From an uncultured Chloroflexia bacterium (GTDB taxonomy: Bacteria; Chloroflexota; Limnocylindria; Limnocylindrales; CSP1-4), in contig CAVOVX010000006.1 of NCBI GenBank assembly GCA_963699965.1, positions 159,315 to 223,314 on the forward strand: a DNA stretch of 64,000 bases. Direction: 5' to 3'. This document shows positions 444 to 33,321 of the stretch, one piece after another (the first letter of the stretch is position 1; every line of letters starts with the position of its first letter). The notes beneath the pieces are model-generated. The model saw only the letters and a list, made by a program, of their open reading frames with translations. It was not told the origin of the DNA and searched no databases. Position numbers and translations under genes: made by a program.

Positions 444-1284
444 TCAGCTGGCGAGGCCGGCGAGGATCTCCGCCAGCTCGGCCGCATCGTGGGCCACGGC
501 CGTCGGGCGGTCATCGGGCGGCAGCGCGTCGAGATGGGCCTGGCTCGACACGCCGGTCAGCATGAGCACGCAGCGGGCGCCGACCGCCCGCGCAGCCGCG
601 AGGTCGGTCACGATCCCGTCACCGATCATCACGGCATCCCGCGGGTCGGCCCCGACCACGTGGCAGGCCTCCTGCAGCAGCAGTGGCTCCGGCTTTCCGA
701 TCGAGATCGGGATGACGCCGGTTGCGACCTCGATAGCGGCCACGATCGCGCCGGCGCCGGGCATCAGGCGGCGCTCGGTCGGATAGACCGCGTCTCAATT
801 CGTCGCGATGAACCTTGCCCCGGCCCGGACCGCGTCGGCGGTCGACCGCCAGCCGGCCGTAGGTGATGTCGGGATCGAGCCCGACGACCACGGCGTCCGG
901 TCGTCCCGCCGCCTCGAACCCGTCGATGCCCTCCTCCGCGACCCGCGCCGCGGCTTCGCCGGCCGCCACGACTTCGAAGCCGCAGTCGGTGAGCTCGCGC
1001 CGGAGTCCGGCGCCGCCGAGGGCCAGCACCAGCCGCGGTCGAAGGTCCTGCTCCGCGAGCCACAGCGCCGTCGCGCGCGGCGAGCTCACCACCCGCTCGA
1101 CGCTGACCGGCGCGCCCATCGCGGCCAGACGGTCGACGTAGTCGGCCCGGTAGTACATCGAGTTGTTCGTGACGTAGACGACGTCGTCACCGGCCGCGGC
1201 GCGGGCAGCCAGGACGGCCGCGACTCCAGGGACCGGGTCCGCACCGCGATAGACGACGCCGTCGAGGTCGACGAGGAGGAGCAT
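444..1284 (-). pseudogene. HAD-superfamily subfamily IIA hydrolase (NagD-like), disrupted by one frameshift and one in-frame TGA
   Basis: The N-terminal part is in ORF 619..1284 (MLLLVDLDGVVYRG...VYVTNNS). The C-terminal part is in ORF 444..764 (MPGAGAIVAAIEVATG...MIGDGIVTDL). My translation of the joining frame reads STADAVRAGARFIATN*DAVYPTERRLMPGAGA, with the TGA at 797..795 falling where this family has ATNRD. Confidence 0.8.
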
Positions 1285-1378
1285 CGGCGCATCGTACCGG
1301 CCATCGACCCGGGGCGACTGGGGGCGTACGATCCGGCCAGCGTCGGCCGGGGGCGGTCGCGAGGGAGGGTCAGCGCGG

Positions 1379-3023
1379 GTGACTGCGGGCTCCGGTGCCG
1401 CCGGAACGAACGGCTTCCTGTTCTGCGACCTGCGCGGCTACACGGCATTCGTCGAAGCCCGTGGCGACCAGGCGGCAGCCGATCTCCTCGCGACGTATCG
1501 CGCCCTCGTCCGGGCGGCGATCGCGACCCATGCCGGGGCGGAGATCAAGACCGAGGGCGACTCGGTCTACGTCGTCTTCCCGGCGGCCTCGGCGGCGGTC
1601 GAGGCGGGACTCGAGATCGTCGCCGCGGCAGCCGAGGCCTCGACCCGCGATGCCCCGATCCGGGTCGGGGTCGGGGTCCATGCCGGCGAGACGGTCGCCA
1701 CGACCGAGGGCCTGGTCGGGGGCGCGGTCAACATCGCCGCCCGGGTCTGCGCCAAGGCCCAGGCCGGCGAGGTCCTCGTCACCGACACCGTCCGGGCCCT
1801 GACGAGAACCTACCTCCCGTACCGCTACACGAGCCTTGGCACCCAGCAGCTCAAGGGGATCGCCGGGGGCATCCCGCTCTACCGGGTCGAGGCCGTGCCG
1901 TCGTCGGGCCGGGCCAGGCTGACCCGCCAGCTCGGAGCCAGACGGGGCCGCGTCATCGTGCTCGCCGGGCTCGTCATCGTCGCCCTCGTCGCAGCGACCG
2001 GCGTCTATGCCCTCAACCGGCCGCCGGACTGTCTGACGCCTCCCGGCCAGCACCAAGGACGTCGTGGCCAAGATCGATCCCGCCCGCAACTGCGTCGTGG
2101 CGGTCTATCCGGTTGGGCAGCGACCGGGGGCGATCGCTGTGTCAGCTGGGCTGGTGTGGATCGCGAACCTAGACGACCGCACGTTGACGTGGATCGACCG
2201 GCAGACGCTCCATTCGGGCGCAACGGCAGCCGGCGGGCTGCCCGTCGGACTCGCGACGGGGCCGGGTTCCGTCATGGCTCTGGACCTCGGCTTCAGACGC
2301 GGCCTCGTAGTGGGAAACGGAGGGTGGGAAACAGTAGTTCCCGACCTCGTTGCACAGATTTCGAACGACAAGAAGCGATGGATTTCGGCCCCGGCAAGGC
2401 TGCCTTCACCGGGTTTGCCGGGCACTGGCGATACAGACCTCTCCGGATATCAAGGCGTTGCATTCGTCGCCGATCACGGCTGGGTTACGGATTCCCTGAC
2501 CGGACGCGTGGTTAGGATCGATCTCGAAGGTCAGGTGGATACGGTCATCCAGGTAGAAGCACCGGTGCCCACGACCGTTACGGGTCACACGCCGACGTAT
2601 GGATCCACCGGGCTTGGCGCCATTGCCGCGGGGCGCGGCGCAGTGTGGGTCGCCAATGAATTGAAGCCCATCGTCTACGACCTGGAGGGCAATGCGGCGA
2701 CGGCACTCTCACTAGGGGGCGCGGCGGGCTCGGTGGCGCTCGATGTCACCGAAGACGCGATCTGGCTGGCTAGGAGCGACGGCCAGCTCACCCGGGTGAA
2801 TCCCGTTTCGAGATCCCCCACGACCTTTGATATCGGTGGCCATGCCACGGCCCTGGCCGTCGATGCGACGACAGTGTGGGCCGCTGACTTGCTGGGGAGC
2901 GCGGTCCGACGGGTCGATGCCGGGAACGGCACCGTCCTTGCCACGCTCAAGGTTGGCGGCCGCCCGGCAGGGGTAGCGATCGCCCCGGACGGCTCGGTCT
3001 GGGTCACGATCCAGGCACCATGA
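1379..3023 (+). pseudogene. Class III adenylate/guanylate cyclase domain - TM helix - beta-propeller ectodomain receptor, copy 1 (frameshifted)
   Basis: Cyclase motifs FLFCDLRGYTAF, KTEGDSVYVVF, GVHAGE and GGAVNIAARV are followed by the TM segment VIVLAGLVIVALVAATGVY. An extra G at about 2038 relative to copy 2 breaks the frame. The ectodomain continues in ORF 2064..3023. The stop overlaps the ATG of copy 2 (ATGA at 3020). Confidence 0.8.
1397..2113 (+). repeat. Tandem-duplication segment A (cyclase domain + TM), near-identical to 3038..3753
   Basis: By-eye base-by-base comparison shows one mismatch near the start (gga/ggc). I saw no differences through about 1965, and only scattered substitutions plus a 1-nt indel after that. 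The offset is 1641 then 1640 nt. Confidence 0.9.
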
Positions 3024-4678
3024 TGCAGAGCTCCGCTGCCGCCGGCACGAACGGCTTCCTGTTCTGCGACCTGCGCGGCTACACGGCATTCGTCGAAGCC
3101 CGTGGCGACCAGGCGGCAGCCGATCTCCTCGCGACGTATCGCGCCCTCGTCCGGGCGGCGATCGCGACCCATGCCGGGGCGGAGATCAAGACCGAGGGCG
3201 ACTCGGTCTACGTCGTCTTCCCGGCGGCCTCGGCGGCGGTCGAGGCGGGACTCGAGATCGTCGCCGCGGCAGCCGAGGCCTCGACCCGCGATGCCCCGAT
3301 CCGGGTCGGGGTCGGGGTCCATGCCGGCGAGACGGTCGCCACGACCGAGGGCCTGGTCGGGGGCGCGGTCAACATCGCCGCCCGGGTCTGCGCCAAGGCC
3401 CAGGCCGGCGAGGTCCTCGTCACCGACACCGTCCGGGCCCTGACGAGAACCTACCTCCCGTACCGCTACACGAGCCTTGGCACCCAGCAGCTCAAGGGGA
3501 TCGCCGGGGGCATCCCGCTCTACCGGGTCGAGGCCGTGCCGTCGTCGGGCCGGGCCAGGCTGACCCGCCAGCTCGGAGCCAGACGGGGCCGCGTCATCGT
3601 GCTCGCCGGGCTCGTCGTCGTCGCCCTCGTCGCGGCGACCGGCGTCTATGCCCTCAACCGGCCGCCGGACTGTCTGACCCTCCCGGCCTCGACCAAGGAT
3701 GTCGTGGCCAAGATCGATCCCGCCCGCAACTGCGTCGTGGCGGTCTATCAGGTTGGATACAGCCCCGGCCCAATGGTCAGTACGGCCGACGCGGTCTGGG
3801 TGGCGAACATCGACGATCAGACCGTATCGCGGATCGACCCTAAGACTGGCGAGGTCCGAACCACATCCGCTCGGGGAACGATCAGCGGCTTCTCAGCTGC
3901 CTCCGACGGAGTCTGGATTCTGGATGGACTCCAGGGACGGCTCACGAAGATCGCGTCGTCGGATGCACGATTGGCGGACACGCTGCTGCTCCCATCAACG
4001 CCTCCCTCGGTGGTCGGAGGCGTGAGCGGCGGAAGCTTGGGCGGGTCGGCCACCCCTCGAGACACGGCCTTCACGTACGGCGACCTCGCAGCTGGCGGTG
4101 GGAAGCTATGGGTCACAAGCAGGATGGAGGGCTCGGTTCTGAAGATCGACCCACGCCGCGAAGACGTTACGAATGCAGGCTACTTTGCGATCGAGCGGCT
4201 CAAGGTGGCGATCCCGCCCGAACCCGAGACGGGCTTCAACGGCGCACTAACCTACGCAGGAACGGGAGTCGGCCTCATCACGTTCGCCGACGGCGCGCTC
4301 TGGATCGCAGACATGAGCGATGCCGCCGTCTGGAGGAGCGAGGTCGGCACCAATCACGTCCAAATCGTCCCGGTCGCGGGCGAGCCCGTCACGACGAACG
4401 CCATCGCCGAGGCGTCGGGCGTGGTCTGGGTGCTGCACGGCGACGGATCGGTAAACATCGCGTCCGCGGTCGGCAGCCAGAGCAAGGTCGTCAATGTCGG
4501 AGCCGATCTCGTTGCCGGCGCGGCGGATTCAACGGGTCTGTGGGCCGCGGACGGAGCCGGAGCACTCCTGCGTATCGATCCGACCGGGGCCGTCCTTTCA
4601 AGACTTGGGCTACCGGGCCGCCCGTCTGGTGTCACGTTTGCTCGAGACGCAATCTGGGTCTCGATCCGGGGCCGTTGA
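3020..4678 (+). CDS. Class III adenylate/guanylate cyclase domain - TM - beta-propeller ectodomain receptor, copy 2 (intact)
   Basis: 552-aa ORF. The N-terminal 215 aa are essentially identical to copy 1. The ectodomain has repeated VWV/LWV/IWV strand motifs (AVWVANIDDQTVSRIDP, GKLWVTS, GALWIAD, GVVWVL, GLWAADG, AIWVSI) typical of YVTN/NHL-like propellers. Confidence 0.85.
   Translation: MMQSSAAAGTNGFLFCDLRGYTAFVEARGDQAAADLLATYRALVRAAIATHAGAEIKTEGDSVYVVFPAASAAVEAGLEIVAAAAEASTRDAPIRVGVGVHAGETVATTEGLVGGAVNIAARVCAKAQAGEVLVTDTVRALTRTYLPYRYTSLGTQQLKGIAGGIPLYRVEAVPSSGRARLTRQLGARRGRVIVLAGLVVVALVAATGVYALNRPPDCLTLPASTKDVVAKIDPARNCVVAVYQVGYSPGPMVSTADAVWVANIDDQTVSRIDPKTGEVRTTSARGTISGFSAASDGVWILDGLQGRLTKIASSDARLADTLLLPSTPPSVVGGVSGGSLGGSATPRDTAFTYGDLAAGGGKLWVTSRMEGSVLKIDPRREDVTNAGYFAIERLKVAIPPEPETGFNGALTYAGTGVGLITFADGALWIADMSDAAVWRSEVGTNHVQIVPVAGEPVTTNAIAEASGVVWVLHGDGSVNIASAVGSQSKVVNVGADLVAGAADSTGLWAADGAGALLRIDPTGAVLSRLGLPGRPSGVTFARDAIWVSIRGR
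3038..3753 (+). repeat. Tandem-duplication segment B, partner of 1397..2113
   Basis: Same comparison as for segment A. Shadow ORFs are also duplicated (for example 1567..1788 and 3208..3429 give the same 73-aa translation). Confidence 0.9.
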
Positions 4679-4707
4679 TGTCTCGCGGGTCTCAGTGACC
4701 CATCGAC

Positions 4708-5313
4708 GTGTCCCGACCGATCCCCTCGTCGGGCACCGAGCGGCTGCTCATCGATGGCTCGAACCTGCTCTACGCCCTGGGCCGGGGCAAGGGTGGGCCG
4801 GCGCCGGCGGCCACGCTCGTCGGTCGGCTCCGGGCGGTGATCCCGGCCGCGATCCGGATCGAGATCGTGTTCGACGGCCCGCCCGATCGGGGCCTGCACG
4901 GGACGCGGATCGCGTCCGGGCTGACGGTCCGCCACAGTGGCCGGTACAGCGCCGACAGCCTGATCGACCGTCTCGTGGCCGATGCTATCGGGACGGGCGG
5001 CACGCCCGACGCCGCCCATGCAGCGGGGACCGCGATCCTGGTGGTGACCAATGACATCGAGCTCGGCCGGTCGGTTCGTCGTCGCGGCGCCCGCACGGCC
5101 GGCGCCTCTTGGCTCACGCGGCGCTTCGACCGCCAGGTCCTGAGCGCACCGGCGATCGGCGTCAAGCGGCCGGCACGGGGCGCGGCGACGACCGGACAGG
5201 CTCAAGGCCAGGGCCACAGCCACAGCTCGGACGACGAGGATCGGCCACGCTGGCAACCCGGCCGCGGCGCCACCAAGAAGACCGGCAACCCGAAGCGCGG
5301 CCGGCCCGGCTGA
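4708..5313 (+). CDS. NYN/YacP-like (PIN-fold) domain protein with basic C-terminal tail
   Basis: LLIDGSNLLYAL...IEIVFDG...ILVVTNDIEL resembles the YacP/NYN layout. The C-terminus is KKTGNPKRGRPG. Assignment is by motif memory only. Confidence 0.5.
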   Translation: MSRPIPSSGTERLLIDGSNLLYALGRGKGGPAPAATLVGRLRAVIPAAIRIEIVFDGPPDRGLHGTRIASGLTVRHSGRYSADSLIDRLVADAIGTGGTPDAAHAAGTAILVVTNDIELGRSVRRRGARTAGASWLTRRFDRQVLSAPAIGVKRPARGAATTGQAQGQGHSHSSDDEDRPRWQPGRGATKKTGNPKRGRPG

Positions 5314-5366
5314 CCCTGCCGCGCCGCCCGCCCCGCCCGCCGTGCCGACCCGGCTAGAATGCCGCC

Positions 5367-5852
5367 GTGAGCATCATCGACCAGCTCAACCAGGCTTGGA
5401 ACCAGATCCTCGACTTCCTGAGCCAGCTGGTGATCCCGGACTGGGGTGCGCTCATCGGGCTCATCCCGTTGGCGCTGCTCGTCCTCCTGCTCGGACCCAT
5501 CCTCAGCCTGATGGCGCTGGGCTGGCTCATCTACATGATCCGCAAGCCGCGCGCGAAGCTGGCGATCGTCGAGGGTCCGTACGCCGCTCCGCTCGACCAG
5601 GCCGGCCAGCCGGTCTTCCCGACCGGCCAGCCGTATTGCGCCCGCGACGGGCTGATCTTCCCGAGCGGGCTCACGATCTGTACGAACTGCCACGAAGAGC
5701 TCGTGGTCACCTGCCCGAAGTGCGGGATCGGCCGCCAGGCACGGGTCCGGACGTGCGCGAACTGCGGGCTCATCCTCCAGATCGACAAGAAGGCCGAGAC
5801 CCGGGCGCTCCAGCCGGCGGGACCGCCGCCGGGTGGTGCCGCGGCCGCATGA
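5367..5852 (+). CDS. Membrane protein with C-terminal zinc-ribbon (CxxC x3)
   Basis: One hydrophobic helical hairpin (LIGLIPLALLVLLLGPILSLMALGWLIY) is followed by CTNC...CPKC...CANC. The stop overlaps the ccsA start (ATGA at 5849). Confidence 0.5.
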   Translation: MSIIDQLNQAWNQILDFLSQLVIPDWGALIGLIPLALLVLLLGPILSLMALGWLIYMIRKPRAKLAIVEGPYAAPLDQAGQPVFPTGQPYCARDGLIFPSGLTICTNCHEELVVTCPKCGIGRQARVRTCANCGLILQIDKKAETRALQPAGPPPGGAAAA

Positions 5853-33266: not shown

Positions 33267-33321
33267 CGCCGACGCGACGTGGGTGGGGCATGATCCGGGA
33301 TCCAACGACCGTGACGGTTCG

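Follow-up and report, generated by a model that had tools for sequence, protein, structure and literature searches.

Receptor-type cyclases are known from trypanosomes (GRESAG4), from animals (the membrane guanylyl cyclases) and from mycobacteria (Rv1625c, Rv1318c-1320c), and Mycobacterium tuberculosis also possesses PknD (Rv0931c), a receptor Ser/Thr kinase with an extracellular NHL beta-propeller. Partial gene conversion, or concerted evolution, of bacterial paralogues is known from tufA and tufB. We compare with these systems a locus near the start of a 64,000 nt stretch of DNA (contig C6, positions 159315-223314; hereafter the window) from a metagenome-assembled genome (MAG) of an uncultured Chloroflexota bacterium, designated G000 (3.56 Mb in 15 contigs, estimated completeness 70%). 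The locus holds two adjacent genes in the same orientation, c1 (copy 1; 1379-3023, forward strand, its frame interrupted in the assembly) and c2 (copy 2; 3020-4678, forward strand, intact, 552 residues), each of which combines a cytoplasmic cyclase and a transmembrane (TM) helix, together called the N-half, with an ectodomain, called the C-half. We hold it likely, taking the explanation as a whole, that c1 and c2 form a genuine pair of co-oriented class III nucleotidyl cyclases of the receptor type, and that the mosaic pattern of identity between them arose by gene conversion and not by fast evolution of the ectodomain. Both copies are probably intact, an extra G at position 2038 in c1 being most likely an assembly error.

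Identity profile and ancestry of the two copies

An earlier note on this DNA had pointed to an ATGA stop/start overlap between the two genes, to inner halves that are nearly identical after one initial mismatch, and to a collapse of identity soon after the propeller begins, and each of these observations stands. The overlap lies at 3020-3023. In a global alignment the mismatch at 1406/3047 is followed by 569 identical nt, which form the putative gene-conversion tract (forward strand; 1407-1975 on the c1 side, 3048-3616 on the c2 side). A junction zone of ~95% identity comes next (1976-2109, forward strand, against 3617-3749; 7 differences in 134 nt), containing the end of the TM helix, a Cys-loop and the DVVAKIDPARNCVVAVY motif. 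Its differences are A/G at 1976, A/G at 1993, an indel at 2038, AGC/TCG at about 2049-2051 and C/T at 2060. Beyond 2110/3750 the nucleotide identity drops to 0.3-0.6 per 60-nt window and the amino acid identity to 28-30%. The first ~9 codons of c1 and c2 are diverged as well in the global alignment. Pairwise comparison thus upholds the mosaic, and there is no uniform decay of identity along the two genes. A run of 569 nt without a difference would, at 5% divergence, have a probability of 0.95^569, roughly 2e-13 by our own arithmetic, so the tract is not a product of chance. At the nucleotide level the same tract is 92.7% identical to its counterpart in the related genome G017, 86% to that in G005 and 82% to that in the metagenome contig L054.

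Synonymous (dS) and non-synonymous (dN) divergence, computed separately for the two halves by the Nei-Gojobori method, differ sharply along the pair. The N-halves of c1 and c2 (239 codons) have a dS of 0.017 and a dN of 0.009, at about 99% amino acid identity, whereas their C-halves have a dS of about 1.45 (saturated) and a dN of 0.79, at 30% amino acid identity. Two control pairs were concordant over both halves. In the first, a paralogue on contig C4 of the same genome and its orthologue in G010 (G000_C4par/G010_C4) share 86% of amino acids in the N-half and 79% in the C-half, with dS values of 0.455 and 0.456 and dN/dS ratios of 0.22 and 0.28, respectively. In the second, the nucleotide identity of c2 and L054 is 82% for the N-half, 78% for the ectodomain and 84% for the downstream gene, and dN/dS (omega) is 0.12 in the N-half and in the C-half. 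This concordance indicates that the ectodomain is not intrinsically hyper-fast.

Phylogenetic trees of the two halves are incongruent. In the N-half tree c1 and c2 group together, beside G017; in the C-half tree c2 falls in a clade with the database proteins P0002, P0003 and P0004 (support 100/100) on a long branch, and c1 groups with P0122 and P0123. Synonymous states in the junction zone are also lineage-specific, c1 having Ser-AGC and GAC as in G017 and c2 having Ser-TCG as in G005 and L054, which shows that c1 and c2 have separate ancestry there. Judged by their placement in these trees, the c1 and c2 ectodomains are old, distinct lineages that belong to different deep clades. A young tract with older, separately inherited sequence on both sides is the signature of non-reciprocal copying, and a recent non-reciprocal recombination (gene conversion), transferring 569 bp or more of the cyclase/TM half from one of the two genes to its neighbour, would produce the mosaic. 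The earlier note had proposed recent conversion or duplication limited to one domain, combined with diversification of the ectodomain; the conversion part of that proposal is borne out by the dS contrast, the junction-zone ancestry and the incongruent trees. An unlinked pair of paralogues in another genome, G014, shows the same mosaic (N-half 91%, C-half 36%), so that homogenisation or reshuffling of the N-half is a property of the family.

The predicted receptor and its locus in relatives

Pfam, an AlphaFold2 model and Foldseek agree that the inner segment comprises a class III cyclase and a TM helix, as the earlier note had read it. PF00211 (class III cyclase) scores 49.3 bits in c2 and 52.2 bits in c1, with a cutoff of 21.9. 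The c1 cytoplasmic half (1379-2037, forward strand, GTG start), recognised from the open reading frame (ORF) listing, the PF00211 match and the alignment to c2, contains the cyclase (about 1412-1873), an Arg-rich juxtamembrane stretch, the TM helix (about 1952-2014) and the start of the Cys-loop, NRPPDC. The model of c2, built on 21 relatives (mean pLDDT 80), has a cyclase fold at residues 11-172 (pLDDT about 90; domain limits 12-165), a helix at residues 192-212 (nt 3593-3655) with RARLTRQLGARRGR just before it, and 28 strands making up the 7 blades of a YVTN-like propeller of the c2 type at about residues 228-550 (mostly pLDDT >90). The positive charge of RARLTRQLGARRGR ahead of the helix follows the positive-inside rule, which argues for an N-in, C-out topology. 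In the modelled architecture of c1 and c2 a cytoplasmic cyclase at the N-terminus is thus joined by an Arg-rich linker to a single TM helix, beyond which come a short Cys-loop and, outside the cell, a C-terminal propeller of 7 blades.

Among solved structures, M. avium Ma1120 and M. tuberculosis Rv1900c (E 6e-20; PDB 4wp9, 1ybt) are closest to the cyclase in sequence, and Foldseek assigns them TM-scores of 0.93 and 0.92, respectively; GRESAG4 is also among the matches of the c1/c2 cyclase domain. The motifs FCDLRG and EGDSV line up with FTDIEE and QGDGF of Ma1120, and AVNIAAR corresponds to the canonical VNxAxR with its transition-state Asn and Arg. Among the 21 relatives the metal-binding residues D17 and D61 are conserved in at least 90% and R122 is invariant. 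Of the pair that specifies adenine, the Lys is present (IKTEGD) and the Asp position aligns to a Gly preceded by a Glu. For the propeller, Foldseek returned the YVTN propeller 1l0q (E 7e-13) as well as the Pizza6 and Tako8 propellers. The same propeller family occurs in the protein database fused to cyclases, to Ser/Thr kinases (P0012, P0018, P0019, P0022), to SARP regulators and to solute-binding domains, and relatives carry the source annotation 'class 3 adenylate cyclase/streptogramin lyase'.

In such a protein, binding of an extracellular ligand to the propeller would act through the one TM helix and the short, Arg-rich linker on the obligate dimer of cyclase domains and determine its geometry. 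Most likely c1 and c2 are ligand-gated cyclases, ligand sensing and dimer control being inferred. The two genes are probably co-translated. A scan for sigma-70 promoters and intrinsic terminators over 1100-5500 gave no match. Identical catalytic/TM halves, together with probable co-translation, make c1:c2 heterodimers with two different sensors plausible. Genomes of the genus contain about 15-37 cyclase-homology-domain matches each, many in proteins of 900-1100 residues, and several N-halves are clustered within a few kb (G005:C7:629-634k, G017:C7:25k). A further family member in the genome under study (L004, outside the window; G000:C6:446777-447668) has TGA stops in its cyclase and propeller parts, and is likely a pseudogene or a site of more assembly errors.

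The variable locus is bordered on the left by a gene for a HAD-family hydrolase (444-1284, reverse strand, divergent from c1), and on the right by an NYN/YacP-like gene (4695-5313, forward strand). Comparison of orthologous loci shows that copy number between these borders varies from none to two. The locus is empty, with the HAD and NYN-like genes adjacent, in 11 of the 16 genomes compared across the genus, and among the genomes and contigs compared two receptor genes occur in this genome only. G017, which at the nucleotide level is about 93% identical to this genome and 92-96% identical to the window over most of its length, has one gene there, with an N-half 96% identical in amino acids to c1 and c2 (dS 0.22) and an ectodomain of another type (36% to c1, 30% to c2, amino acids); its nucleotide homology to the window ends exactly at the AVY junction and restarts just past the stop codon. 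A single c1-type gene is present in G005 (52-58% amino acid identity, in three frame pieces), L056 (47%, both flanks visible) and L055 (51%), and these three genes are the nearest relatives of the c1 ectodomain. A single c2-type gene is present in L054 (the P0002/L054 orthologue, 83% amino acid identity in the ectodomain) and in L057 and L058 (43%, both flanks visible); the c2-type gene of G014 is fragmentary, and G010 retains a degenerate remnant. In a tree built from both flanking proteins the occupied genomes are scattered, G014 for example being sister to the empty G018 (support 100/99), and the site has thus gained, lost and changed its receptor repeatedly.

Two of these genes have peculiarities of their own. 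In the syntenic gene of G014 (L041, G014:C1:498000-504500, protein P0005), ~33 residues of the first blade are a near-exact match to P0006, and immediately after this blade remnant come another ..VAVYEVG.. junction and an ectodomain of the c2 type, a scar that makes the gene look like a collapsed tandem pair. The c2 orthologue on the JGI metagenome contig L054 is interrupted in its cyclase half by an in-frame TAG at positions 46-48 (HAGA*IKTEGD), reflecting either an error or a pseudogene in that population.

The c1/c2 junction suggests how the tandem may have formed. In G005, L055 and L056 the c1-type gene ends in ...CCATGA, which overlaps the start of the downstream gene; that start reads ATGAC(G/C)CAG.. 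in G005 and L056 and ATGAGCCGA.. in L055. The c2-type gene P0003 starts with GTGACGCAG, and the c1 stop/c2 start junction in the window (3015-3034, forward strand) reads CCATGATGCAG, with the ATGA overlap inside the 9-nt motif RTGAYGCAG, which is common to the starts of c2-type genes and to the start of the downstream gene in relatives. If this microhomology provided one side of the join and homologous pairing within the downstream gene provided the other, an incoming c2-type allele would come to lie directly behind a resident c1, creating the tandem. We give this account, in which a second allele joined behind the first at the 9-nt microhomology, somewhat less than an even chance. A variant in which c2 captured its first three codons from the downstream gene was weakened by the finding that c2-type genes elsewhere begin with the same GTGACGCAG, and these codons are retained in the model as microhomology only.

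The ectodomains also differ from the N-halves in base composition. GC content at third codon positions (GC3) falls from 0.91 in the N-halves to 0.73-0.75 in the ectodomains of c1 and c2 (2110-3020, 3750-4675), the latter values being in the lowest 1-3% of long ORFs in a genome that averages 0.85; other family members range from 0.76 to 0.84, and the L054 ectodomain has 0.735. Foreign origin of the cassettes is one candidate explanation; another is that a segment without a recombination partner has lost GC-biased conversion. More speculatively, the locus may be a polymorphic-receptor site, at which mutually unalignable, ancient ectodomain types would be exchanged, stacked and lost among close soil Chloroflexota, the cyclase/TM half and the flanks would act as recombination arms, and conversion would keep stacked halves identical so that heterodimers could integrate two ligands; we regard this broader picture as tentative and rather unlikely in its entirety.

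Weighing the alternatives

The reading of c1 and c2 as a real receptor pair shaped by conversion must be tempered by several points. The tandem, the 100% identity and the G at 2038 are read from the assembly consensus, and no second copy of the c1 frameshift site, whether the G was included or not, or of the c1/c2 junction turned up when metagenome contigs were scanned for exact patterns. Donor and recipient of the conversion are indistinguishable, and the microhomology model rests on 9 nt. The Asp that specifies the substrate is replaced by Gly, after a Glu, in the cyclase, whose putative activity may be that of an adenylyl or of a guanylyl cyclase. Propeller matches in Pfam fall below the curated cutoffs (DUF6923 24.6 against 27, SGL 22.1-24.8 against 26.3, Vgb_lyase 18.3 against 50), although database relatives do bear SGL/DUF6923/Vgb_lyase-type Pfam marks on the propeller.

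The best-surviving alternative concerns the extra G (2038, forward strand). The base is present in the assembly, as the earlier note had observed: c1 reads GAC(G)CCTCCC, whereas c2, G017, G005 and L054 read GACCC.. without it, and c1 with the G removed translates to the same LTLPASTKDVVAKIDPARNC as c2. The note had also envisaged a copy broken in life, with a product ending at about 2090. The shifted frame actually runs to 2515, giving 378 residues that include a nonsense tail of ~158, and the biological break itself fares poorly, since the G belongs to a set of at least 13 window-specific insertions of a single nucleotide and is followed by a fully open ectodomain frame. That frame (2040-3023, forward strand, c1 type, GC3 0.73) has no stop in 327 codons, the other five frames having 5-11 stops; with 8 stops expected, the chance of this is about 3e-4. 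Nor is there any decay of sequence downstream of the G of the kind that would mark a frameshift pseudogene.

To place the G among other differences, frameshifting indels that are not compensated nearby were polarised between the window and G017, with G005 as outgroup. At least 17 proved window-specific, against 6 for G017, and at least 13 of the window-specific ones are 1-nt insertions, including those at 844 and 2037/8; relative to the genes of G005, frame changes cause 7 splits in the window and none in G017. The insertion at 844, which splits the HAD gene, is absent from both G017 and G005. Further window-specific frameshift sites include 6715, 7869, 7945, 21688, 24766, 25476, 30801, 31509, 33269-33275, 33458, 38069, 38813 and 45869. 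The frameshift error rate in the MAG is thus about one per 3 kb, a rate that also explains an estimated completeness of 70% in an assembly of only 15 contigs. An extra G at 4733 in the NYN/YacP-like gene is seen in comparison with G017 and is not polarisable with G005; L055 and L056 also lack the base. Without it the gene probably starts at GTG 4695 and reads MTHRRVPTDPLVGTERLLIDG as its relatives do, and the start listed at 4708 is an artefact of the shift in frame.

If the G at 2038 were real, c1 would be a very recent pseudogene, or a membrane-anchored cyclase uncoupled from its sensor, and c2 the working receptor. Consistent with this, the base stands in the assembly and is not a homopolymer extension, members of the family are broken in relatives (in G005 the syntenic gene is split into three frame pieces, and G014 and G010 have fragmentary copies), and the same genome harbours a family pseudogene with TGA stops elsewhere. 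We nevertheless consider it improbable. Errors alone are expected to place about one insertion of the window type in 3.3 kb, and single-base insertions occur at two further sites no more than 3 kb away, one on each side: 844 (window-specific) and 4733 (against G017, unpolarised). The c1/c2 differences that flank the G are synonymous, the ectodomain frame is open over 327 codons as described, and the site carries no slippery or recoding signal. An assembly rich in errors and an open ectodomain frame downstream together make a consensus error the likelier source of the G. Programmed frameshifting at 2038 was rejected separately: there is no slippery sequence, in-frame stop or Shine-Dalgarno-like stimulator, and the site is not conserved in relatives.

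Less probable again, in our estimation, is an artefact of assembly, in which a c1-type and a c2-type allele from different strains were concatenated, or the N-halves were homogenised by cross-talk during consensus calling or polishing. In its favour, the genome is a MAG with many indel errors, and the c1 and c2 types are alternative occupants of the locus in other organisms. Concatenation is hard to reconcile with the junction, which is unique in sequence and shares a motif of 9 nt, a length at which an overlap or k-mer assembler cannot join, and which lacks the upstream intergenic DNA that a second allele would carry. The repeat is 0.7 kb long with copies 1.6 kb apart on a 701-kb contig, and is easily spanned by long reads. 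As for homogenisation, its usual cause is short-read polishing, against which the leftover indel errors argue, and only 11 pairs of repeats in the whole genome reach 300 nt at an identity of 95% or more. Other tandem repeats among these 11 pairs, 500-600 nt long at 97-98%, are found at G000:C7:531157-532390 and G000:C6:637424-639301, one of them in three copies.

Recent tandem duplication of the whole gene followed by very fast diversification of the ectodomain in place, the remaining part of the earlier proposal, could draw on the generally greater divergence of ectodomains than of N-halves (43-58% identical at about 80% amino acid identity in the flanks) and on the low ectodomain GC3, but it is effectively refuted by the dS contrast, with ectodomain synonymous sites saturated at an N-half dS of 0.017, and is also opposed by the age of the ectodomain lineages and their positions in different deep clades, by the occurrence of each type singly at this locus elsewhere, by the uniform c2/L054 divergence (omega 0.12) and by the divergence of the 5' ends (first ~9 codons). 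A diversity-generating retroelement was also rejected, no formal search having been made, since the differences extend over the whole ectodomain (~70% of residues, with saturated synonymous sites) and are not confined to a short repeat targeted at adenines.

Relation to known systems

A search of the literature found no paper on cyclase-TM-propeller receptors. The receptor family is present in databases but has not been studied, and the conversion mosaic is a new example of a known process. Its interest lies in offering a clean natural case, with controls, of gene conversion limited to one module of a two-module bacterial receptor. One site in an uncultured soil lineage cycles between an empty state, one gene (of at least three unrelated sensor types) and a tandem pair, and these states point to strong, changing selection on what the cyclases sense. 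The identical catalytic/TM halves suggest a testable idea, that of heterodimers with mixed sensors. A warning also follows: any apparent pseudogene or gene fusion in this MAG, c1 included, needs read support.

Among individual proteins, Ma1120 and Rv1900c (LipJ) are the best matches in sequence and fold, with the metal-binding Asp pair, the Lys and the Asn/Arg conserved; they differ in having neither TM helix nor propeller, and c1 and c2 have a Gly (after a Glu) in place of the substrate Asp. PknD has the same order of parts as c1 and c2: its catalytic domain is N-terminal and cytoplasmic, a single TM helix follows, and the propeller sensor is C-terminal and extracellular. The Pizza designer proteins among our Foldseek matches derive from the PknD propeller. 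The output of PknD is that of a kinase and its propeller is a 6-bladed NHL, whereas c1 and c2 join a class III cyclase to a 7-bladed propeller similar to YVTN and Vgb-lyase. In receptor-type cyclases, too, a dimeric class III cyclase is coupled to a sensor that is extracellular or lies in the membrane, and Rv1318c, Rv1319c and Rv1320c are tandem paralogues, as are c1 and c2; their order is sensor-TM-cyclase, however, which is reversed in c1 and c2, and the latter have no HAMP or kinase-homology linker.

As an evolutionary process the locus resembles tufA/tufB, where a sharply bounded tract of identity likewise lies between flanks with older, separate histories. Unlike in tufA/tufB, the c1/c2 tract covers one module of a two-module receptor, and the other module is too diverged (about 50% nucleotide identity) to be converted as well. 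A likeness of working, with no claim of membership, links the locus to the polymorphic toxins Rhs/CdiA-CT (Zhang et al. 2012, PMC3482391), in which, too, deeply divergent C-terminal modules take each other's place behind a conserved N-terminal part and a sharp junction motif; displaced modules leave scars, as in G014 for the present locus. In contrast to those systems, c1 and c2 have no toxin and no immunity gene, and each unit of the tandem is a complete gene with a catalytic half of its own.

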